This document shows positions 22,189 through 31,679 of a DNA stretch of 64,000 nucleotides, one piece after another. Position numbers and translations under genes: made by a program. This stretch comes from Escherichia coli (GTDB lineage Bacteria; Pseudomonadota; Gammaproteobacteria; Enterobacterales; Enterobacteriaceae): assembly GCF_048403405.1 (NCBI RefSeq), contig NZ_CP183129.1. One strand, 5' to 3'. Numbering within the stretch: the stretch's first letter is position 1; every line of letters starts with the position of its first letter. Below the pieces are notes generated by a model. The model did not search any database and was not told where the DNA came from. It was given only the letters and a program-made list of their open reading frames with translations.

Positions 22189-23940
22189 ATGATTCAGGAC
22201 GCTTTTGTGCGCCAGCGTGCGCGACAACTTTACTGGCAGGGTTATCCGCCCGCAGAAATATCACGTCTGATGGGAATAAACCCGAACACGATTTATGCGT
22301 GGAAAAAACGCGACCAGTGGGATGAAACGCCACCCGTGCAGCGTGTCACGCAGTCCATCGATGCGCGCCTCATCCAGCTTACTGAAAAACAGAATAAAAC
22401 AGGCGGTGACTTTAAGGAAATAGACCTGCTGACCCGGCAACTTAAAAAGCTGCATGATGGCCAGCCGGATGTGATGGCCGCAGGAAAGAAAGGCCGGGCG
22501 AAAAAACTCAAAAATCATTTCACGCCGGAACAGATTGCCGCACTGCGGGAAAAAATCATCAGCAGGCTGGAGTGGCATCAGCGGGGCTGGTTTGACTCCC
22601 TGACCCTTTGCAGGGAAGCCGGGATACGTAACAGGATGATCCTGAAATCCCGACAGATTGGGGCGACCTGGTATTTTGCACAGGAAGCACTGCTGATGGC
22701 GCTGCGTGACGATGTGGTGCAACCTTATCAGCGTAACCAGATTTTTTTGTCTGCGTCGCGTCGTCAGGCGTTCCAGTTTAAAAGCATTATTCAGAAGGCC
22801 GCGGCTGAAGTTGATGTGGAGCTGAAAGGGGGCGATAAAATCATCCTCTCCAACGGCGCAGAGCTGCATTTTCTCGGCACTTCTGCTGCGTCGGCACAGT
22901 CCTATACGGGCAATTTTTATTTTGATGAATTCTTCTGGGTCAGTCGCTTTGCTGAACTGCGCAAGGTGGCTGGCGCTATGGCAACCCTCAGCGGACTGCG
23001 GCGCACCTACTTCTCCACGCCATCCACCGAAACGCACGAGGCATACGCCTACTGGAACGGCGACCGCTGGAACGAGAAAAAGGCCACGCATAAACGCCAG
23101 CGTTTTTCTGTGGACTGGAAAACGCTGCATAACGGGCTTATCTGCCCTGACCGGACGTGGCGGCAAATTGTCACGCTGGAAGATGTGGTTAATCACGGCT
23201 GGAAACACACCGATATTGATGAAATTCGTGATGAAAACACCGAAGACGAGTTCCTCAATCTCTATATGTGTGAGTTTGTCCGCGAAGGGGAATCGGCATT
23301 TAACCTGAATATCCTGATTGGCTGCGGTGTTGACGGATACGACGACTGGAAAGACTGGAAACCTTTTGCTCCCCGCCCGATGGGGAATCGCCCGGTATGG
23401 ATTGGGTATGACGCAAACGGCAGCAGTGGCAACGGCGACAGCGGCGCTGTGTCCGTGGTGGTTCCTCCGGCTGTTCCTGGTGGCCGTTTTCGAACGGTGG
23501 AGACGCGACGCGTTCAGGGGCTGGAGTTTGAAGAACAGGCCAGAGTCATTGAAGAGTTCACGTGTCGCTACAACGTGGAACACATCGGCATTGATGTGAC
23601 GGGCGGGAACGGGGAGGCTGTTTATCAGATAGTGAAACGGTTTTTCCCTGCCGCTATTCCGTACACCTTCACGCTGTCATCAAAACGGTCGCTGGTACTG
23701 AAAATGCTGCAAATAATGCGTGCCGGGCGGTGGGAATACGATCGCGCCGAACGCGAGCTGGTCGCGGCCTTTAACGCCGTGCGTAAGGTGAAAACACCGG
23801 GCGGCTTTATCACTTACGAAACGGACCGCGCGAGGGGGATCAGCCACGGCGACCTTGCGTGGGCAACCATGCTTGCTGTCATTAACGAACCAATTGGCGG
23901 CGAAGGAGAAAACGAGCGTTTCACGGTTATGGAGTTCTGA
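22189..23940 (+). CDS. P: Terminase large (ATPase) subunit P
   Basis: 583 aa; N-terminus ...RARQLYWQGYPPAEISRLMGINPNTIYAWKKRDQWD as in P2 gpP. Confidence 0.9.
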   Translation: MIQDAFVRQRARQLYWQGYPPAEISRLMGINPNTIYAWKKRDQWDETPPVQRVTQSIDARLIQLTEKQNKTGGDFKEIDLLTRQLKKLHDGQPDVMAAGKKGRAKKLKNHFTPEQIAALREKIISRLEWHQRGWFDSLTLCREAGIRNRMILKSRQIGATWYFAQEALLMALRDDVVQPYQRNQIFLSASRRQAFQFKSIIQKAAAEVDVELKGGDKIILSNGAELHFLGTSAASAQSYTGNFYFDEFFWVSRFAELRKVAGAMATLSGLRRTYFSTPSTETHEAYAYWNGDRWNEKKATHKRQRFSVDWKTLHNGLICPDRTWRQIVTLEDVVNHGWKHTDIDEIRDENTEDEFLNLYMCEFVREGESAFNLNILIGCGVDGYDDWKDWKPFAPRPMGNRPVWIGYDANGSSGNGDSGAVSVVVPPAVPGGRFRTVETRRVQGLEFEEQARVIEEFTCRYNVEHIGIDVTGGNGEAVYQIVKRFFPAAIPYTFTLSSKRSLVLKMLQIMRAGRWEYDRAERELVAAFNAVRKVKTPGGFITYETDRARGISHGDLAWATMLAVINEPIGGEGENERFTVMEF

Positions 23941-24986
23941 TGAGCAGAAAAAATAAAAAAGTGCGCATGAGTTCACGCATTGATCTCGCTGATGCGCTCA
24001 GGAAAGAATCATCGCTCAGTGCATTCACATTTGATGGTCCTTATCGCCTGACCGGGCATGACCTGCTGGACAATATGTACTGTGCTGATAACGGGCGGTG
24101 GTATGAAACCCCGGTGGACTGGTACGGTCTGGCAAGAGCCGCCCGGCAAACGTCCTGGCATCAGTCTGCGCTTTACTTTAAGCGCAATGTATTACTCGGT
24201 TGCTACATCCCGCACCCGCTGCTTTCCCGGCAGGATTTCTCGGCGCTGGCGCTGGACTGGTTTGTGTTCGGTAACGCATTCCTTGAGCTTCGGAGCAATA
24301 TGCTCGGCGAACCGCTTAAATTACGGCACGCCCTGGCGAAATACATGCGACGCGGAAGCGATCTTGAATCATGGTGGTATGTGCAGGATGGCAAGGACGC
24401 GTTCCAGTTTCGCCCTGGCAAAGTGTGCCACCTGATGAATCCGGATATTAACCAGGAAATCTACGGCATGCCGGAATATCTTGGCGCATTACTCTCGGCC
24501 AGCCTTTCTCATTCGGCGGACATGTTCAGAAAACTGTACTACGACAACGGATCCCACGCCGGGTGCATCATCTACATCGGTGCAGCGCAGGTAAACCGCG
24601 AAAGCATGGACTCCCTGAAAGAAACGTTACAGGGTGCGCGTGGTGGTGGTGCATTTAAAAACGTGCTCATTCATGCGCCCAACGGGGGCAAAGAAGGGGT
24701 GCAAATTTTGCCGTTCCAGCAGATCACCGCAAAAGATGAGTTCATGAATGTTAAGGCGGCATCCCGTGATGATGTGCTGGCTGCGCACCGCGTTCCGCCG
24801 CAACTGATGGGGGCGATGCCGGGCGAAAAAAGTGCGTTTGGTGATGTGGAGAAGGCCGCGCGGGTTTACGCAATTAACGAGCTGATGCCCGTCATGGAGG
24901 CCATGAAGCACATCAATGACTGGCTTGGCGAAGAGGTGATCCGCTTTAACCCTTACGCACTGTTAGACACCCAGCCCACATCCTGA
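23940..24986 (+). CDS. Q: Portal protein Q
   Basis: 348 aa; ...NGRWYETPVDWYGLA...RVPPQLMG...GDVEKAARV...EEVIRFNPYALL as in P2 gpQ. Confidence 0.9.
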   Translation: MSRKNKKVRMSSRIDLADALRKESSLSAFTFDGPYRLTGHDLLDNMYCADNGRWYETPVDWYGLARAARQTSWHQSALYFKRNVLLGCYIPHPLLSRQDFSALALDWFVFGNAFLELRSNMLGEPLKLRHALAKYMRRGSDLESWWYVQDGKDAFQFRPGKVCHLMNPDINQEIYGMPEYLGALLSASLSHSADMFRKLYYDNGSHAGCIIYIGAAQVNRESMDSLKETLQGARGGGAFKNVLIHAPNGGKEGVQILPFQQITAKDEFMNVKAASRDDVLAAHRVPPQLMGAMPGEKSAFGDVEKAARVYAINELMPVMEAMKHINDWLGEEVIRFNPYALLDTQPTS

Positions 24987-25013
24987 CGCGCTTCGCTTGT
25001 CTGCTGCTTCGCC

Positions 25014-25036
25014 GGGGCATAAAAAATTTATGCCCC
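25014..25036 (+). terminator. Hairpin downstream of Q
   Basis: GGGGCATAAA-aaa-TTTATGCCCC inverted repeat just after the Q stop. Confidence 0.4.
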
Positions 25037-25289
25037 GACTCTCCAGCTCCTGTATCAGTCAGATAATTTCACGACGCTTTCCTGCTGATTGCCATCATCG
25101 ACAGTCAGACTCTTACGCAATCCCACCGCGTTGACTGCATGTTCTCGCCGTCTCAGTGCGATTTTGACGGCCTTACCTTTCACCCCATCAAATCAAAAGC
25201 CCTCACGTCTTTTTCACGCTCAGCGTGAGAAATACAGCCATTCTGTTGTGTCTCTGCGACATCGTTCAGGGGATGCTATTTACCCCCTG

Positions 25290-25325
25290 AAACGCGGGCT
25301 GTTCCCCCGTCACCTGCGCGCAGAA
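25290..25325. other. Candidate cos (cohesive-end) region
   Basis: Lies between portal Q and the accessory region, where P2-family cos sits; GC-rich 19-mer ending CAC followed by TGCGCGC resembles the remembered P2 cos end. Low confidence. Confidence 0.3.
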
Positions 25326-25537
25326 AAAGCGCGTTTTTTTGTGCACGCACGGATCCTTGACGGATCCAGCCGCCATGCGGGCCGGAAGGGTAAAAAGTCG
25401 TTCAAAAAAATTGTGCAAATTTGTGCACTTTTGTGCAGGTAAGCATGCCTATATATTTGACCGTGGCTTGCCTTTGATGTAGTTTATACGTCACAAAAAC
25501 CACAAAACGTGGTTATGATTTCTATGAGGGGGTTGAT

Positions 25538-25573
25538 ATGAAAAAAATGTATGATGAATTTGATGGTTTCTAA
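25538..25573 (+). CDS. Candidate 11-codon mini-ORF (MKKMYDEFDGF) upstream of the AT-rich cassette
   Basis: GAGGGGG ribosome-binding site 6 nt upstream of ATG; followed within 20 nt by a strong intrinsic terminator; TATGAT -10-like hexamer at 25513-25518. Confidence 0.35.
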   Translation: MKKMYDEFDGF

Positions 25574-25593
25574 GCTACGTTGACCTCTAATGA

Positions 25594-25620
25594 GGCGGGG
25601 ATTTGCTCCCCGCCTTTTTT
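25594..25620 (+). terminator. Intrinsic terminator / candidate attenuator hairpin
   Basis: GGCGGGGA-tttgc-TCCCCGCC stem followed by T6, 15 nt upstream of the next gene start. Confidence 0.6.
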
Positions 25621-25634
25621 ATGGATGAAATAGG

Positions 25635-26132
25635 ATGAACCCAATAACACTACAAATCATCAGCAATGCTATTGTTCTGCTTGGCGTTTTGGTTGCCATT
25701 GGAACCATTATCTACAATGTGCGTACCGCAAAAAAAACTCAAACGGCCAACTTTCTTTTTGAGAGTCGGCAAGATATGCAATATATAGAGTCATTGCATA
25801 CCCTGAAACAAGTGCATCGTTCAGGCAAATCATTTCGTTCTTATGTTTTTCCTTGTGATGGTTGCATAATAACAGATGAAGAAATGGCCGAGCGTCGAAA
25901 ATTTCAATATATTTTAAATTTTTACGAGCGAGTTGCTGTAAGTATTCGTGAAGGTATTTATGATGAAAAAATGATAAAAAGAACATCTTACACAACAGTT
26001 GTAGAGACATATGATATTGCCGAGCCATTAATTAAAGCAATCAGAGAAAGCATTAATTCGGATACTACATATCAAGAATTCGAATGGTTAGTAAGAAGAT
26101 GGAAAGCTAATCCTTTACGGAAAAACAAATAA
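25635..26132 (+). CDS. Hypothetical protein, single N-terminal transmembrane helix plus ~130-aa soluble domain (unassigned family)
   Basis: 165-aa ORF in strongly AT-rich DNA, where long open frames are unlikely by chance; N-terminal hydrophobic helix ITLQIISNAIVLLGVLVAIGTIIY. Confidence 0.75.
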   Translation: MNPITLQIISNAIVLLGVLVAIGTIIYNVRTAKKTQTANFLFESRQDMQYIESLHTLKQVHRSGKSFRSYVFPCDGCIITDEEMAERRKFQYILNFYERVAVSIREGIYDEKMIKRTSYTTVVETYDIAEPLIKAIRESINSDTTYQEFEWLVRRWKANPLRKNK

Positions 26133-26171
26133 TGTTTTACCCTTTAATTTACAAGTAACACAGGGGGAAGT

Positions 26172-27014
26172 GTGACACAGAATCCGTTTTCATTTTATGA
26201 CTTTTTGGGCTATCTAATTCCAGGTGGGTTATTCCTGTTTATCCTTTTTTTGTTTTCTATTGAAATTAACCCTGTTTATATAGAAGGTATTCTTAACCAT
26301 ATCCTGAAATATAAAGAAATAATAAGTGTATTTATATATGTGGCATTAATCGTTCTATCATATATTTCAGGTCACTTCATATCTATTCTATCATCCTGTT
26401 TAATTGAAAAATACATGAACAGTAAACTTGGGTATCCTTCAATTTATCTGTTTTCTAAAAGAAGCTCCCTGAAAATAAAACGACATAATACTAAGTTCAG
26501 TATAGTTAATTTTATTCGTGGAGTTTTTTTATTTCCTGTATCAGCTTTTGATAAAGCAGAACATCATAAAACCACACTGCATTCTATACTTATTAAAGTC
26601 TTTTGGCCGCAAATACGAGATGGTTATATAAATGTTTTTTCTGTATCTACGCTATATCGACGTAAGGGCTTGAGGGGCAATCTTTTTCGCCTTGCTTATC
26701 ATTATGTGTATGAACATTCTAAAAATCATCAGGTGAAAATGCAAAACTATGTTGCTTTGTATGGTTTTTGTAGAAACATTACATTTGTTTTTCTCGCTTC
26801 AGTCTGGTTGCTTATGTTCCTGCTCCTTCTATCCTTTTTAATAGATATAAATATCAGACTGTTACCTTTTTGTTTTCTTCTCTTGTTTTGTATTGCTGTA
26901 TCCCGAGTATTTTATTATGGTTTTGTTAAGTATTATCGCCGCTATTCTCTTGAGGTTTTAATGGCATTTGCGGTACTTCAGCACGATAAAAAAACTTCGG
27001 CAATTTCATCATGA
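26172..27014 (+). CDS. Hypothetical polytopic inner-membrane protein (unassigned family)
   Basis: 280-aa ORF, GTG start after CAGGGGGAAG ribosome-binding site; several long hydrophobic segments at the N- and C-termini; AT-rich; 39 nt downstream of the preceding gene. Confidence 0.75.
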   Translation: MTQNPFSFYDFLGYLIPGGLFLFILFLFSIEINPVYIEGILNHILKYKEIISVFIYVALIVLSYISGHFISILSSCLIEKYMNSKLGYPSIYLFSKRSSLKIKRHNTKFSIVNFIRGVFLFPVSAFDKAEHHKTTLHSILIKVFWPQIRDGYINVFSVSTLYRRKGLRGNLFRLAYHYVYEHSKNHQVKMQNYVALYGFCRNITFVFLASVWLLMFLLLLSFLIDINIRLLPFCFLLLFCIAVSRVFYYGFVKYYRRYSLEVLMAFAVLQHDKKTSAISS

Positions 27015-27097: not shown

Positions 27098-27412
27098 TTA
27101 TTCTGGGAATAAGGTCTGAATATTCTTTTTTATTCTATAAAAATTGCATTCAACTCCGCTAGGCTGATTATCCTGGTATGTTTCCTTGATGCTAACGGTA
27201 TTGAAGGGGAGGTTGTCCTCTGGCCATTCGGCCATCCAGTAGGCAAATGCTGGGTTGCGCTTTATGAGCGCTAGCCCAGCCAGAAAGGCCGCGCGTTGCG
27301 CGCGGCTGCGTTCGGAGGCTGGTAGGCTATCGAGGTAATTGCACGCCTCCTGTTCACTCTTGACGGCGGCGGGCTTCAGATAGAAACTTATCCGTCTGGT
27401 TGGTGTCGTCAT
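27098..27412 (-). CDS. ParR/StbB-like partition adaptor
   Basis: Start trimmed to MTTPTRRISFYLKP...; YLDSLPASERSRAQRAAFLAGLAL resembles the R1 ParR motif as remembered; lies directly downstream of the ParM-like gene. Confidence 0.65.
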   Translation of the reverse strand: MTTPTRRISFYLKPAAVKSEQEACNYLDSLPASERSRAQRAAFLAGLALIKRNPAFAYWMAEWPEDNLPFNTVSIKETYQDNQPSGVECNFYRIKKNIQTLFPE

Positions 27413-27416
27413 TGGT

Positions 27417-28376
27417 TTACTCCTTGTCCATTGCGTACAGCCCATTAACCAGAGCAAACTGTGGCACCCCGTCCGCGATGAAAGTCGCATTAACTCCGCA
27501 GACTTCGCGGATAGCGGGTGCCACAATCTCCGCCCCTCCACCGACAACCATCACCCGCCCGTAACCCGAAAAAACCGCCAGCGCGCGGATCACGCGTTGT
27601 TTCAGTGTTTCTTCCTTTTCACGAATAACCGCCATCAGGCTGGCGTAATGCGCGTCATTGTGGATGTGCTGGCGCAGCCAGGCTTCATCATGGCGATGTT
27701 CGATAATGGTATTGGCGATGTGGTGACTGGTGCGCATACCGTTAGTGGCCATCACCGACAGTACGGCATCGGCCATCAGGGAAACGCCTACGTGTGGATC
27801 GCAAAACACCTGGCTGATACCTGCCAGTTGCCCTTGAACCTTTGCCACATCCAGCGTGGTTCCGCCTAAATCCACAATCAGCAGGGATTCAAACGGACTC
27901 ATGTCAGCCAGTGCTTTAAAGCCAGCCGGAATGGATTCAGGCATAACCCGCACGTTACGGATAGTGAATGCTTCGCCGTTCTGGTACTCCACCGAGCGCA
28001 TAACGTTCGCTTTTTTGCGGTTGATGTTGGCCATGTCCGGCTGTGCGTTTGTCTCGAAATACTCGCTCAGTGGCAGGGTGACAACCACATCCACCTCTTG
28101 TGGCGTGATGCCTGATTTGACCAGCGCGTGATGAATGGCGATTACATTCACATCGCTGTACTGGTATTGCGTGTCGGTCGTCTGGACAAAGCGATCGCTG
28201 ACCGGATCAAAACCATAGCGCACGCCATCAAGCATGTAGTTCGCGGGCTGCATGCCACCGAACGGCGCAGACCATTCCGACTTGAAGCTGTTCGGGCTGA
28301 TGGCGTTGCGGCGTTCGCCATTCTCAGTCCATGCCAGCTTGATGTTGGTGGAGCCGTCGTCGATACAAATTTTCAT
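27417..28376 (-). CDS. ParM/StbA-like actin-type partition ATPase
   Basis: 319 aa; IDDGSTNIKL, ISPNSF, QYSDVNV..HHAL, RKKAN, PESIPAG, LIVDLGGTTLD, GVSL, VVGGGAE and LVNG motifs as in plasmid R1 ParM (from memory). Confidence 0.8.
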   Translation of the reverse strand: MKICIDDGSTNIKLAWTENGERRNAISPNSFKSEWSAPFGGMQPANYMLDGVRYGFDPVSDRFVQTTDTQYQYSDVNVIAIHHALVKSGITPQEVDVVVTLPLSEYFETNAQPDMANINRKKANVMRSVEYQNGEAFTIRNVRVMPESIPAGFKALADMSPFESLLIVDLGGTTLDVAKVQGQLAGISQVFCDPHVGVSLMADAVLSVMATNGMRTSHHIANTIIEHRHDEAWLRQHIHNDAHYASLMAVIREKEETLKQRVIRALAVFSGYGRVMVVGGGAEIVAPAIREVCGVNATFIADGVPQFALVNGLYAMDKE

Positions 28377-28402: not shown

Positions 28403-28520
28403 AACCGTTTACGGGATTTTTAAATCCCGCTTTCGCCTGTTTTGTGCGCGCTTCATATATCGCGGCGCGTTTTTTGCTCATTTACGGGATTTGTGAATCC
28501 CGTTTCTGTCTGTTTTTTGT
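28403..28520. repeat. Two ~40-bp direct repeats, each with an internal palindrome (candidate parC-like centromere/operator)
   Basis: TTTACGGGATTT(T/G)T(A/G)AATCCCG...CTGTTTT occurs at 28403-28445 and 28477-28520, upstream of the ParM-like start and overlapping the 3' end of gene A. Confidence 0.45.
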
Positions 28521-31293
28521 TTCCACTGGTCAGGCCAGTCCTCAGCAGGTTTGCTTTGCGGCGGGCGCGTTCAGTGGTTTCTCTGATTCTCTGTGCGTGC
28601 TCTGCGTCACGAATGGCGCGCAGCATGTCAGAAAGCACGGTAACGGGTGTTTTCATGGTGTTCTGGACCTGCTGAAGTGTGGATGCCAGGCGTGCGGCGG
28701 CTTCGGGGTCTGATGCCCCGAGCTGTGCCAGATAGCTGGAGACCGGGTTATGGCGGATCTCCGTGCTGCTTACGCCGTGATTACGGCTCAGGCGCTGCCA
28801 GAGCTGCGTGATTCGGCTGTCCGGGCGGGCATCCGGTTTGCGTACAATTTCAAATCCCTGCGGTGCAATGATGCTGCCGTCAACGTACAGACTGCCGCCC
28901 CGTAACAGGTGCTGCATCTGTTGTTCACCGATATGCAGGCCGAGAGATTCAGCAGACTCCCGCCATTCTTTAGCGAGTAATTCGTGGTTATCAGGCAAAG
29001 GCCGCTGCTGTTTGCGGCTCTGTGTCCAGCTCTGCATTTCATCGCTGCTGTTTTTTGCCTGTTTGTCACGAAGCGAACGCATCAGCGCCCGGCGTTCGTG
29101 TCGTTTCAGTGAGCGCATCCATTCGTTCACTTCAACGCCGTTAGGGAGCTGCGGCCACGGTGCTGGCCGTTCTTCCGGCTGTTCTGTCCCGTTGTTGTCC
29201 GTTTCCTGTACACGGGGACAGTTATTGCCACGAGTCCAAGGGGCGGCAGGGCCGCCCTGAAGGTCAAAACCATTTTCGCGGGCGCTGTCTTCCGCTTCCG
29301 GTTTGCGTCTTACCAGCTTCCAGTTATCCGGATGCGTGCACACACGGGAGGATTCCCCGATGAGTGGTGACCAGATCCCGTAAATCTGTACGCTCTGTTC
29401 GCCGTAATCGTTCATCTCATCGGCGAGGTCGTAGGCGGTGCGAATCAGGTAGTCTTTGCGTGGAACAAGTACGCCGCCCTGTTTCTCTATGTAGGTGGCA
29501 AAACATCCGGCATCAGCGGCGGCAAGAACCGCATCCATTGCGTCATCCTTCAGCCGTTGCGGGCCTTCCGGGTTGCGTGCCATCTGGCTGGCAAGGCGGC
29601 GCAGTTCACGCCATACCTGGCGGGAGGGGATGCCAAAGAACTGGAACTGGCGGACCCGGTGAAGGCGCGCCCAGCCGATGGCGCGTTCCACGCTCTCGGC
29701 CATTGATTTTCCGGTTTCGTGGTCAACGCGTGGCTTGCCCGTTTTCGGGTCGATGCCATCCACGGCACGGCTGTCCAGGTTTTTCCCGATGTAGGTGGCG
29801 ATGTAGCTGGTCGGTGTGCCTTTTGAGCCGTCGACGTACTCCGCCTTAAAGCGTGGGGTAATATCATCACCCAGCTCGTGACGATCTTCCTGAATGGCAA
29901 TATCGCGGGTGTGGGACACAATAGTGTCGATTTCTTCCGGATGAGCAAAGACCATCATATGCCAGTGCACGGTGCCGTCATGGTGAGGCTCCACCGTGCG
30001 GATGCCATACCAGCGCAGGCCGTCGCGGTTCAGTTTCTTGCGGACCGCCGCAAAAAACGTGTTAACCAGGTAATCGCTGGAGTCGCGCATGGTGGCCCCG
30101 TTCCATTTGGGATTCGGATGACCGTTCTCTGTTGTGGCGTGGTATTTTGACGGGCAGGTGACAGTCAGAAACACCGCTCTGTCGCCACGGGCTTCGGCCA
30201 GAAGTTCCAGCCCCTTCATGGTGGCCATCATTTCTGCCTTACGGTGAACCGGGTTACTTACTCCCGCGTAATACACTGTCTCGAGATCAATCGTGAACCC
30301 ATCTTCGTTTTCCAGCATGAAACTTTTCAGGAAATCGCGTGTTTTCTCGCGCTGTGCGCGAAACTCGCTTAATGCGTCCTGGCTCAGATAGGGCGATGTT
30401 TTTCTGGAAACCAGACAGGCGGCGCGGAGTTGTTCTTCTCTCCACTCGCAACGTAACAGCCACAGTTTGCGTTTCCACCATTCCGCACAGGTCAGGCGAA
30501 GGATTGCGCCCGGCAGCAGCTCCGTGTCCGGTTCGTTCCTCCGGTCTTTATCTGTTGTCAGTGCGTCATAATGTGGAGGCATGATGTGCAGGTGTAACGC
30601 CATGCGGGCCAGCATCTGATACGCCTTCAGCGTTACATCCATGGTCAGTTCGCCATCGGTCGCGCCAAAGCCATCGCAGAGTTTTTCGAAGGTGCTGCTG
30701 AACATCGCCGCCGTCATGGTGGCCAGCGTCTGTATCTGGTGTTTGTTGAGCTGCGGCAGGTAAAGCAAATCGTCCAGGCGTTCGCGTCCGGCAAGGGAGC
30801 GATAACCAGGTGTCAGCCAGCGCCCGTCAGTGCGATCCAGACGTTCGAATATTTTGCGCAGGGTTCCGCGTGCATAGCGTTCCGCCTGCCAGGTCTTTTT
30901 GCCTTTCTGACGATCGGCTTCCTGCTTCTTGCGCAGGAAAGAGAGGTGGCGGCTCAGAGGTTCTCGCAGATAACCGGGAAGCGCCTTCAGTGTGGCAAAG
31001 GCACGGGCTACCGGGTCTTGTTCTGTTGCCCGGCGCTTACTGATGATGCTCTGTGCCAGCTTTTCACGCTGTCCGGCTTCCTCAAGGGATGCCATGAGTT
31101 TTTTACCCATGGCGGATTGTGCGAAAAAGGCTTCTTCCTTCGCTTCCTGTTCTTCCTGTGCCCTTTTGTCCGCCTCAAGGTAGTAACGGATGGCGCGTTG
31201 CAGGTCGGTTTCAGTTTCCTGCCTGCGCTCCGTAAATCTGGCCGGATCAATAGCTGGTCGTGGTTCATTCCAGCTCCATGCAAACGCACTCAT
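28453..31293 (-). CDS. A: Replication initiation protein A (rolling-circle HUH endonuclease)
   Basis: Long ORF with HWHMMVF HUH-like motif and P2 gpA-like region; start trimmed to MSAFAWS, abutting the upstream gene stop. Confidence 0.85.
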   Translation of the reverse strand: MSAFAWSWNEPRPAIDPARFTERRQETETDLQRAIRYYLEADKRAQEEQEAKEEAFFAQSAMGKKLMASLEEAGQREKLAQSIISKRRATEQDPVARAFATLKALPGYLREPLSRHLSFLRKKQEADRQKGKKTWQAERYARGTLRKIFERLDRTDGRWLTPGYRSLAGRERLDDLLYLPQLNKHQIQTLATMTAAMFSSTFEKLCDGFGATDGELTMDVTLKAYQMLARMALHLHIMPPHYDALTTDKDRRNEPDTELLPGAILRLTCAEWWKRKLWLLRCEWREEQLRAACLVSRKTSPYLSQDALSEFRAQREKTRDFLKSFMLENEDGFTIDLETVYYAGVSNPVHRKAEMMATMKGLELLAEARGDRAVFLTVTCPSKYHATTENGHPNPKWNGATMRDSSDYLVNTFFAAVRKKLNRDGLRWYGIRTVEPHHDGTVHWHMMVFAHPEEIDTIVSHTRDIAIQEDRHELGDDITPRFKAEYVDGSKGTPTSYIATYIGKNLDSRAVDGIDPKTGKPRVDHETGKSMAESVERAIGWARLHRVRQFQFFGIPSRQVWRELRRLASQMARNPEGPQRLKDDAMDAVLAAADAGCFATYIEKQGGVLVPRKDYLIRTAYDLADEMNDYGEQSVQIYGIWSPLIGESSRVCTHPDNWKLVRRKPEAEDSARENGFDLQGGPAAPWTRGNNCPRVQETDNNGTEQPEERPAPWPQLPNGVEVNEWMRSLKRHERRALMRSLRDKQAKNSSDEMQSWTQSRKQQRPLPDNHELLAKEWRESAESLGLHIGEQQMQHLLRGGSLYVDGSIIAPQGFEIVRKPDARPDSRITQLWQRLSRNHGVSSTEIRHNPVSSYLAQLGASDPEAAARLASTLQQVQNTMKTPVTVLSDMLRAIRDAEHAQRIRETTERARRKANLLRTGLTSGNKKQTETGFTNPVNEQKTRRDI

Positions 31294-31679
31294 GGCTGGT
31301 ATCCCGTCACGCGCTGCCACTCCTGCGAGAAGAGGGCGGAAAGGCGGTTAAATTCAGCGGTGTATTCACTCAGCGAGGCACACCCGCCAGCAGTGCGATG
31401 CGCCAGCATTGCTGCAAATACGGAGGCCGGAGAGTCGTAATACGCCAGCAGTGATTCGCCGTGCGGTGTCAGGCAGTGCAACGCCAGTCCGTGTGGTGTG
31501 AAGTCCACGCGGTAGCAGTCGTCTACTGTGAAATAAAGGGTGTCTGCATTCTCCGGTTTTGTGGTGCGTGCTCTGTTGTCACGACCACGGATGTAGAGAT
31601 CAAATAACCCCTGAAGAACGGGAGCCAGACGGGTGTCCTGTGTGCGCACCCATCTTGTGAAGTCATGAGCGTCAATCAT
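31290..31679 (-). CDS. Hypothetical early-region protein (position of P2 B / orf80-83)
   Basis: 129-aa ORF ending at the A start. Confidence 0.55.
   Translation of the reverse strand: MIDAHDFTRWVRTQDTRLAPVLQGLFDLYIRGRDNRARTTKPENADTLYFTVDDCYRVDFTPHGLALHCLTPHGESLLAYYDSPASVFAAMLAHRTAGGCASLSEYTAEFNRLSALFSQEWQRVTGYQP

Follow-up and report, generated by a model that had tools for sequence, protein, structure and literature searches.

A conserved putative micropeptide gene and intrinsic terminator ahead of a DUF4760 gene in a P88-like prophage of Escherichia coli

The leader and its putative micropeptide gene

The window analysed here is a stretch of 64,000 nucleotides (nt) from Escherichia coli (NCBI RefSeq assembly GCF_048403405.1, contig NZ_CP183129.1) that, judged from its sequence, is a P88-like (P2-family) prophage. 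Positions 25457-25640 form a leader to a gene whose product belongs to Pfam family DUF4760 (E = 2e-34), and are proposed here to be the front end of an ancient unit of two open reading frames (ORFs). A first-pass annotation of the same letters had described an 11-codon mini-ORF, an intrinsic terminator and a tiny ORF running into the first gene of a cassette, and had suggested that they form an attenuator. All of these elements were found where it had placed them when read directly from the sequence, and they are arranged with others as follows.

25457..25485, plus strand: probable sigma-70 promoter, TTGACC-17 nt-TAGTTT
25498..25514, plus strand: inverted repeat AACCAC-aaaac-GTGGTT with a 5-nt loop
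25526..25532, plus strand: Shine-Dalgarno (SD) sequence GAGGGGG of the micro-ORF, 5 nt before its ATG
25538..25573, plus strand: micro-ORF, ATG AAA AAA ATG TAT GAT GAA TTT GAT GGT TTC TAA, encoding MKKMYDEFDGF
25564..25577, plus strand: 5-bp hairpin enclosing the micro-ORF stop codon, of low stability in the window, where two of the pairs are G-U
25583..25588, plus strand: ACCTCT box, resembling an anti-SD sequence
25592..25620, plus strand: intrinsic terminator, stem GAGGCGGGGA/TCCCCGCCTT, loop TTTGC, T6
25621..25638, plus strand: ATG directly adjoining the T-run, first codon of the 5-codon ORF ATG GAT GAA ATA GGA TGA (MDEIG)
25635..26132, plus strand: DUF4760 gene, 165 amino acids (aa)

The 221-nt leader is present in 298 of 5,426 complete E. 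coli genomes, mostly as identical copies, and its arrangement is 100% conserved in at least 265 E. coli genomes. Divergent copies at 80–85% identity are carried by a Citrobacter phage, by E. coli no107 and by a 49-kb plasmid. Identity across at least 265 genomes, together with the recurrence of the architecture in relatives of unrelated nucleotide sequence, indicates that the arrangement is not due to chance. A comparison of the leader with Rfam at relaxed thresholds returned sub-threshold matches only, the best being SorX (19.3 bits against a gathering score of 46.6).

The micro-ORF product is a member of a family of acidic and aromatic micropeptides with the consensus ...[DE]-x-[FWY]-D-G-[FY]-stop. 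Upstream of DUF4760 genes the ORFs of this family are 7–21 codons long and close with an acidic/aromatic ending such as DEFDGF, DEYDGF, DENDGY, EGWDGF/C or DTWDD, the variants at these loci being DEFEGF, EEFDGF, DEYDGF, DEYDWF, DENDG[FYL], DDYDGI, EGWDG[FYC], DTWDD and DEWEDR. The copies at 80–85% identity keep the peptide through synonymous or conservative changes (MKKVFDEFDGF, MKKRYDEFDGF). Over the last six codons the entropy is 0.39, 0.63 and 1.40 bits at codon positions 1, 2 and 3, respectively, the third positions being free to vary, and all three stop codons are in use. This synonymous-type variation and the use of every stop codon reveal selection on the peptide. The predicted initiation signals point the same way for the micro-ORF as a class, with a median SD duplex of −11.1 kcal/mol across the family (−12.1 kcal/mol in the window) compared to −4.7 kcal/mol for long ORFs, whereas the DUF4760 start, at −3.1 kcal/mol, is weaker than that background. 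In Enterobacter pulveris (L173:2380-2500) the stop codon has changed from TAA to TAC and the peptide is four residues longer (MKKAFDEFDGFYIMK), the sole case seen.

The association of this small gene with DUF4760 was assessed blind to the motif, by gathering loci through the DUF4760 protein and not through the peptide. Wherever the DNA upstream of a DUF4760 gene of the subfamily is intact, which holds for ~60 loci reaching down to 29% identity, the micro-ORF directly precedes that gene. This includes 33 of 33 such loci in IMG/VR, all full-length DUF4760 loci in GTDB (100,044 species genomes), where the carriers belong to Enterobacterales, Halomonadaceae, Pasteurellaceae, Marinomonas and Nitrotoga, and four of four further homologues at 29-35% identity. 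The exceptions are explicable by contig ends, by an IS421 copy in the hairpin and by one lost stop codon. The micro-ORF is always co-oriented with DUF4760, either overlapping or abutting its start or separated from it by a terminator. The description of mini-ORF and terminator as a leader of the first gene is thereby borne out, as the architecture recurs in divergent relatives of unrelated nucleotide sequence, and the comparison supports the view that mini-ORF, terminator and post-terminator ATG constitute a conserved, co-oriented 5' module of the DUF4760 gene. As a separate observation, several E. coli prophages have IS421 (IS4 family) inside the terminator hairpin, with GGGATTTGCTCCC duplicated, by which micro-ORF and DUF4760 are parted (L008:2671-4045; also L054, L081, L102 and L132).

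The micro-ORF is unannotated in nearly all of the records examined, and full-text literature searches on DEFDGF, EFDGF and DUF4760 returned nothing relevant. No earlier description seems to exist of the micropeptide family or of its obligate association with DUF4760.

Upstream of the micro-ORF, the −35 element, the spacing and a TA(A/G)TTT −10 element of the probable promoter are kept in at least ten divergent relatives, including the plasmid copy, the relatives' version reading TTGACT-17-TAATTT; transcription would start near 25492. The TATGAT hexamer earlier noted as −10-like is indeed present at 25514-25519, but the promoter to which it belongs, GTCACA-18-TATGAT, although preferred by the promoter scan, is not conserved among relatives. 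The inverted repeat at 25498..25514 forms in the minimum-free-energy fold and is preserved in relatives by compensating changes (GTTCAC/GTGAAC, TTCACT/AGTGAA, AGCCACA/TGTGGTT), and would be a stem-loop near the 5' end of the RNA or else an operator. Another inverted repeat, (T)TACC-N3-9-GGTA(A), occurs no more than 200 nt upstream of the micro-ORF at 16 of 33 loci, compared to 1.1% of control windows. Its carriers (L014, L016, L028, L046, L055, L083, L104, L165 and others) include some that are otherwise unrelated in sequence; it is degenerate in the window (25468-25485), and is also found before the terminase small-subunit gene that adjoins an orphan mini-ORF, meaning one without DUF4760, in L204 and L209.

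The terminator and the start of the DUF4760 gene

The claim of a strong intrinsic terminator ahead of the DUF4760 gene is borne out by its sequence features. Its hairpin ranked first in a terminator scan of 24500-26500, with 10 pairs, seven of them G-C, a 5-nt loop, T6 and a stem energy of −18.9 kcal/mol. The core is comprised of GGCGGGGA (25594-25601), TTTGC, TCCCCGCC (25607-25614) and T6 (25615-25620), and is extendable to the 10 pairs from 25592; on the minus strand the hairpin has no T-run. Across 20 relatives 96.9% of the stem cells are paired, and in the Citrobacter phage a compensating double change has turned a G-C pair into A-U. At this position, terminators unrelated in sequence are found in Enterobacterales, in Halomonadaceae and in a soil metagenome, with a median of −17.2 kcal/mol.

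The further proposal that this terminator is subject to conditional read-through is not upheld. As in an attenuator, a short leader ORF that is predicted to be translated (11 codons, SD duplex of −12.1 kcal/mol, coding-type conservation) precedes the terminator. However, RNAalifold on 20 sequences returned no antiterminator helix, only the terminator and the small hairpin at the stop codon, and pairing of the upstream RNA with the 5' arm of the terminator (median −8.6 kcal/mol) is no better than in shuffles (z = −0.13), compared to −17.2 kcal/mol for the terminator itself. The ACCTCT box, which is nearly invariant in the alignment of relatives (alignment A3) and lies between the stop codon and the terminator, finds a complement of only 4 nt (GAGG) in the terminator arm. 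The distance from stop codon to hairpin is 18 nt in the window and 16-18, 23-24 or 39-48 nt in the family, always at least 16 nt, and the hairpin is beyond the reach of a terminating ribosome. Nor is the terminator kept wherever the leader ORF is kept, since it is missing where the micro-ORF overlaps or abuts DUF4760, namely in Pasteurellaceae and Betaproteobacteria; the loci concerned are those of Pasteurellaceae, Schauerella, Nitrotoga, L168, L309 and L313 (TAATG junctions in Pasteurellaceae and Schauerella, 2-5 nt gaps elsewhere). The peptide motif, moreover, occurs without DUF4760 as well, and the conserved core is accordingly a peptide ORF rather than a read-through switch.

The leader thus shares with the attenuators of the trp and pheA leaders and of the ermC and bmrB type a short SD-bearing leader ORF, a terminator and a regulated gene without a promoter of its own, but differs in that no competing antiterminator was found here, the stop codon is too distant from the hairpin, a run of regulatory codons is lacking, and the terminator is dispensable in distant relatives while the peptide is conserved. 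It does not appear to be a classical attenuator, but is a new form of the leader-ORF-plus-terminator theme, and illustrates that what looks like a textbook attenuator can instead be a micropeptide gene missed by gene callers. Its predicted anatomy is that of a well-translated small gene followed by an efficient, unregulated terminator that would throttle a downstream gene lacking an SD sequence.

As there is no room for a separate promoter, expression of DUF4760 must depend on read-through of the terminator, and this dependence, along with the SD-less start, would fit tight limitation of a possibly harmful product. The overlap described between the tiny ORF and the first gene is present, the TGA of MDEIG sharing an ATGA (25635-25638) with the DUF4760 ATG at 25635. 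An equivalent stop/start overlap (ATGA, TAATG or TGATG) recurs in six relatives, and in distant lineages it is the micro-ORF itself that overlaps the DUF4760 start. Such overlap or abutment, in the window and in relatives, ahead of a start without an SD sequence is the configuration of translational coupling. All 20 sequences of alignment A3 have ATGG after the T-run; the post-terminator ATG is in frame with DUF4760 in seven relatives, opens an ORF that stops at or over the DUF4760 ATG in six and is out of frame in the rest, the class of its ORF having been assigned by eye from the alignment for eight sequences. The DUF4760 proteins of Pasteurellaceae begin with MDET, from which the post-terminator ATG is probably the ancestral start of DUF4760. 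A single-nucleotide difference was noted at this point between L014 and L017, where T7 and T6, respectively, after the terminator move this ATG out of or into the DUF4760 frame; either phase variation or an error of sequencing may account for it.

The reading tentatively favoured here is that of a translated micropeptide gene with a constitutive, ratio-setting terminator that would keep DUF4760 low, the peptide probably acting in trans. The sigma-70 promoter at 25457-25485 would drive a short RNA on which the 11-codon ORF, by virtue of its very strong SD sequence, would be efficiently translated to MKKMYDEFDGF, and the strong terminator 18 nt after the stop codon would end most transcripts as a peptide mRNA of ~130 nt. 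DUF4760 would be carried by read-through transcripts alone and, with a start that has no usable SD sequence, the region lying flush with the T-run, would be poorly translated, probably by way of the post-terminator ATG, with re-initiation at ATGA. The net result would be a fixed, large excess of peptide over membrane protein without any conditional switch. The peptide would be the selected product and most likely act after its release, as a partner or inhibitor of DUF4760, and the orphan copies in other phages would hit the same target.

The closest parallel for such an arrangement is provided by operons of the ToxIN type, where the ratio of antitoxin to toxin is set by a terminator lying between their genes. 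Here, too, a small upstream product, an internal terminator and a downstream candidate effector follow one another, with a promoter, a predictably abundant upstream product, a scarce and potentially harmful protein, and residence on a mobile element linked to phage defence. The upstream product would in this instance be a peptide and not an RNA repeat array, and DUF4760 is not a known toxin.

The same junction invites comparison with the translational bypass of T4 gene 60, in which case peptidyl-tRNA-Phe would leave UUC-UAA, skip the ~47-nt hairpin gap and land on a UUU of the T-run, fusing the two frames. A conserved peptide before the stop codon, a stop codon set in a small hairpin, a strong hairpin in the gap, UUU codons right before the invariant ATG and a downstream ORF without an SD sequence are all in keeping with such an event. 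It is nonetheless highly improbable, as the landing frame in the window ends after five codons, the frame of the post-terminator ATG relative to DUF4760 varies among relatives, no natural in-frame fusion was seen, the micro-ORF is kept in lineages that have no gap, and the T-run offers a UUU in every frame.

Orphan copies, the DUF4760 protein and the action of the peptide

The peptide motif is not confined to DUF4760 loci. A scan of IMG/VR for back-translated DEFDGF-TAA yielded 116 loci in 82 unique contexts, about a quarter of which precede DUF4760 genes, including some with hairpins unrelated in sequence. The remaining loci are orphan mini-ORFs in unrelated phage backbones without DUF4760 (L011-L126 and L195-L307; for example, L041:1001-1022, L013:11632-11652 on the minus strand, and L194:854-919), taking the forms MKDEFDGF, MYDEFDGF, MHDEFDGF and MNDEFDGF as well as the tandem MFDEFDGFDEFDGF and MLDEFEGFDEFDGF. 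Many of them neighbour terminase genes or cos, and most are followed by a hairpin. The MKDEFDGF orphan is ATGA-coupled to an N4 gp49-like gene and has a hairpin and a convergent terminase gene on its downstream side, an orientation that leaves this class without a cis target. The MNDEFDGF orphan follows a ParM partner gene or a ClpX-zinc-finger-like gene, the MYDEFDGF orphan follows a Q-type antiterminator, and in Karamvirus PG7 the motif is carried by a 21-aa ORF before gp47, annotated as PG7_053.

A second IMG/VR scan, in which a stop codon was not required, found the motif directly followed by a stop in 37 of 112 coding occurrences among the matches listed, compared to ~5% expected from three stop codons in 64. 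Internal copies were found in small acidic proteins of phrog_6828, and the related ends DEHPDF and DERPDL are seen at the C-termini of the same small phage proteins. DEFDGF is common to the micropeptides, the phrog_6828 proteins and PG7_053, but the latter two are longer or orphan, have no link to DUF4760 and reside in genomes of virulent-phage size. Searches with the 21-aa PG7 peptide found no match by tblastn against phages, the query being short and of low complexity, or among the sequences of the PDB, and the region of one orphan class (class E) has no match in E. coli genomes.

This spread raises the prospect that the peptide is a free effector directed against a host protein or a protein of a competing phage, DUF4760 being merely co-transcribed. 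A mimic of acidic, Phe-ending C-terminal tails would be one example, and the SSB tip DFDDDIPF is a tail of this kind, although the likeness is inexact. Copies unaccompanied by DUF4760 are widespread in T4-like, T5-size, lambdoid and Mu-like-size contigs; the motif is C-terminal in one-third of the occurrences among the matches listed and is accompanied by the related DEHPDF and DERPDL ends, and no docking onto DUF4760 is predicted. A linkage to DUF4760 of 100% over Gamma- and Betaproteobacteria, down to 29% identity, is nevertheless hard to explain without a functional tie, and this explanation is considered unlikely.

The DUF4760 protein itself is predicted to consist of an N-terminal transmembrane helix and a helical domain, with a YQEFEWL sequence that is invariant in the family and that the peptide motif resembles. 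AlphaFold2 (AF2) models it as a transmembrane helix with a helical bundle at a predicted local distance difference test score (pLDDT) of 94. The solved structures closest to this model are the EP domains of plant EDS1 and PAD4, with query-normalised TM-scores from Foldseek of 0.52–0.58 compared to <0.32 for all other matches. With 7–11% identity, this likeness is a resemblance of predicted fold, and homology is not proven. Remote clades of the DUF4760 family were also seen in AFDB, in Pseudomonas, Neisseria and Acinetobacter.

Whether the peptide acts after release or while still on the ribosome is the principal question that divides the remaining accounts. TnaC, SecM and the leader peptides of antibiotic-resistance genes act in cis as nascent peptides. 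By analogy, the sequence ...DEFDGF-stop might slow or arrest the terminating ribosome, either constitutively or in response to a ligand or to a change of translation brought on by infection, and so control read-through of the terminator, re-initiation at the SD-less start or both, or act by pure translational coupling where the terminator is missing. Several features are readily accommodated by this explanation, which is a real if lesser possibility. The micro-ORF is always immediately upstream of DUF4760 and co-oriented, overlapping it or parted from it by a terminator alone; the DUF4760 start has no SD sequence; the ATG flush with the T-run is invariant; and a hairpin follows most orphan copies too. 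Conservation is packed into the last six residues before the stop codon, which is equally expected for a C-terminal binding motif. The stop codon is enclosed by a covarying 5-bp hairpin (columns 52-65 of alignment A3) with 90.9% of its cells paired, a value matched by none of 500 shuffles; covariation links the third bases of the Asp and Gly codons to bases after the stop, and C-G is swapped for U-A at two pairs, all four combinations being seen.

Other features are difficult to reconcile with an action in cis. No conserved antiterminator was found, the 16-48 nt between stop codon and hairpin are too many, and vary too much, for a steric effect, each of the three stop codons is in use, a convergent gene lies downstream of some orphan copies, and the tandem and internal copies of the motif resemble a protein-binding motif. 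Among known arrest and sensor peptides, comparison is closest with TnaC and SpeFL, which act at or near a stop codon, and with SecM and MifM, which act on a downstream start. The micropeptides resemble these in C-terminal conservation, in their aromatic and Asp residues and in the dependence of a downstream gene on events at the leader, but are only 7-21 residues long and tolerate any stop codon, their arrest is hypothetical, and their motif is also found in tandem, inside longer proteins and in orphans without a downstream target.

The preference for a released peptide acting on DUF4760 would draw on these orphans without a downstream target, on the tandem and internal copies, on the C-terminal placement of the motif and on its likeness to YQEFEWL. 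A number of points weigh against it. The YQEFEWL likeness involves three or four residues; when DUF4760 was tethered to its cognate peptide in AF2 with a paired multiple sequence alignment no docking was obtained (peptide pLDDT of ~35), a weak negative given that DUF4760 was modelled as a monomer and with a shallow alignment. The −10 element of the promoter is weak by consensus and absent from the output of the promoter scan, L173 has lost the micro-ORF stop codon, and the transcription start, the efficiency of termination and translation of the micro-ORF are predictions. Moreover, conservation next to the stop codon, the covarying stop hairpin and the strict adjacency to DUF4760 fit a nascent peptide acting in cis equally well.

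A bolder proposal, which on present evidence is rather doubtful, is that micropeptides ending in ...[FWY]-D-G-[FY]-COOH constitute a new class of phage signalling or decoy peptides that restrain DUF4760 as a membrane-anchored immune effector of EDS1/PAD4-EP-like fold, with the orphans of virulent phages serving in counter-defence. Such restraint, in prophages and chromosomes, would be that of a peptide antitoxin or of a mimic of an auto-inhibitory helix. Should this be true, it would describe a peptide-gated bacterial effector linked structurally to a signalling node of the plant EDS1 family. DUF4760 is a widespread proteobacterial and phage family without a known function, found here in a hotspot known for anti-phage systems, and the linked micro-ORF, the circulation of orphans and the EP-like fold make the family directly testable.

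The prophage setting

The leader and its gene lie within an island of low GC content (27–40%, compared to ~55% in the flanks) between the gpP/gpQ and ParM/gpA blocks of the prophage, among the following features.

22189–23940, plus strand: terminase gpP
23940–24986, plus strand: portal gpQ
25411..25437, no strand assigned: three TTGTGCA direct repeats at exact 10-bp spacing, kept in relatives, the final conserved P88-like backbone before the variable cargo
26172..27014, plus strand: gene for a 280-aa multi-pass membrane protein
27098–28376, minus strand: ParM and its partner gene
28453–31320, minus strand: replication endonuclease gpA

The nearest phage records are P88-like (Xuanwuvirus/Peduoviridae), and their homology with the window ends at 25437–25461, just 3' of the three TTGTGCA repeats. 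The ends of one such genome record, NC_049391, map to ~25392. The cos-proximal region between gpQ and gpA of P2-like phages is a defined hotspot with a cargo of old, tin, PARIS and others (Rousset et al. 2022; PMC9122126). Lying between gpQ and gpA beside cos and variable among related phages, the segment of leader and DUF4760 opens the variable cargo of this defence hotspot. It resembles the hotspot cargo of P2-like phages in position, in its low-GC variable character, in having its own promoter and in encoding membrane proteins, but differs in that no PADLOC model matches the cargo proteins significantly (the best being, for DUF4760, PDC-S35 with E = 0.014 and, for the second gene, Csx27 with E = 1.6e-5). 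The 280-aa product of that second gene, assigned to phrog_12528 with the same weak Csx27 match (E = 1.6e-5), is found only in phage of the window type among 33 DUF4760 loci, and is a lineage-specific neighbour outside the conserved module.

The position of the element, ~130-230 nt from the conserved cos-side region and downstream of the portal operon, is also what would be seen if the ORF were incidental and the hairpin served only to shield the cargo from late (P-Q) transcription arriving from upstream or belonged to the cos site. This is scarcely credible, given that the region lies in variable cargo and not in the backbone, that the portal gene has a terminator of its own downstream, at 25316-25340, and that coding-type conservation extends over wide divergence and unrelated nucleotide contexts. 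The hairpin as cos site was rejected directly, since the P2 cohesive-end 19-mer is absent even with three mismatches and the hairpin is situated in the variable cargo past the backbone.

Several minor observations concern the surroundings of this cargo. The TTGTGCA trio at the edge of the cos-side backbone is a candidate protein-binding array, for instance for terminase or a host factor. Two more hairpins lie 3' of the portal gene, at 25011-25040 and 25316-25340, the latter (GCGCGC...GCGCGT followed by T7) resembling a terminator of the P-Q late operon, by which the cargo would be its own transcription unit. An extra minus-strand gene of 525 bp follows the portal gene in L001:1602-2126 and L002:1599-2123, in phages otherwise 99% identical, and is absent from the window (matching point ~24955-24980). 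Hotspot cargo of the opposite orientation in P88-like phages (L032, L047 and L018) encodes a 174-aa protein without a PHROG match, and its gene is preceded by a mini-ORF of the MNDEFDGF type, overlapping either the end of the ParM partner gene or that of the gene for a small ClpX-type zinc finger protein. In the common L018 lineage, the ATG of this mini-ORF is replaced by CTG.

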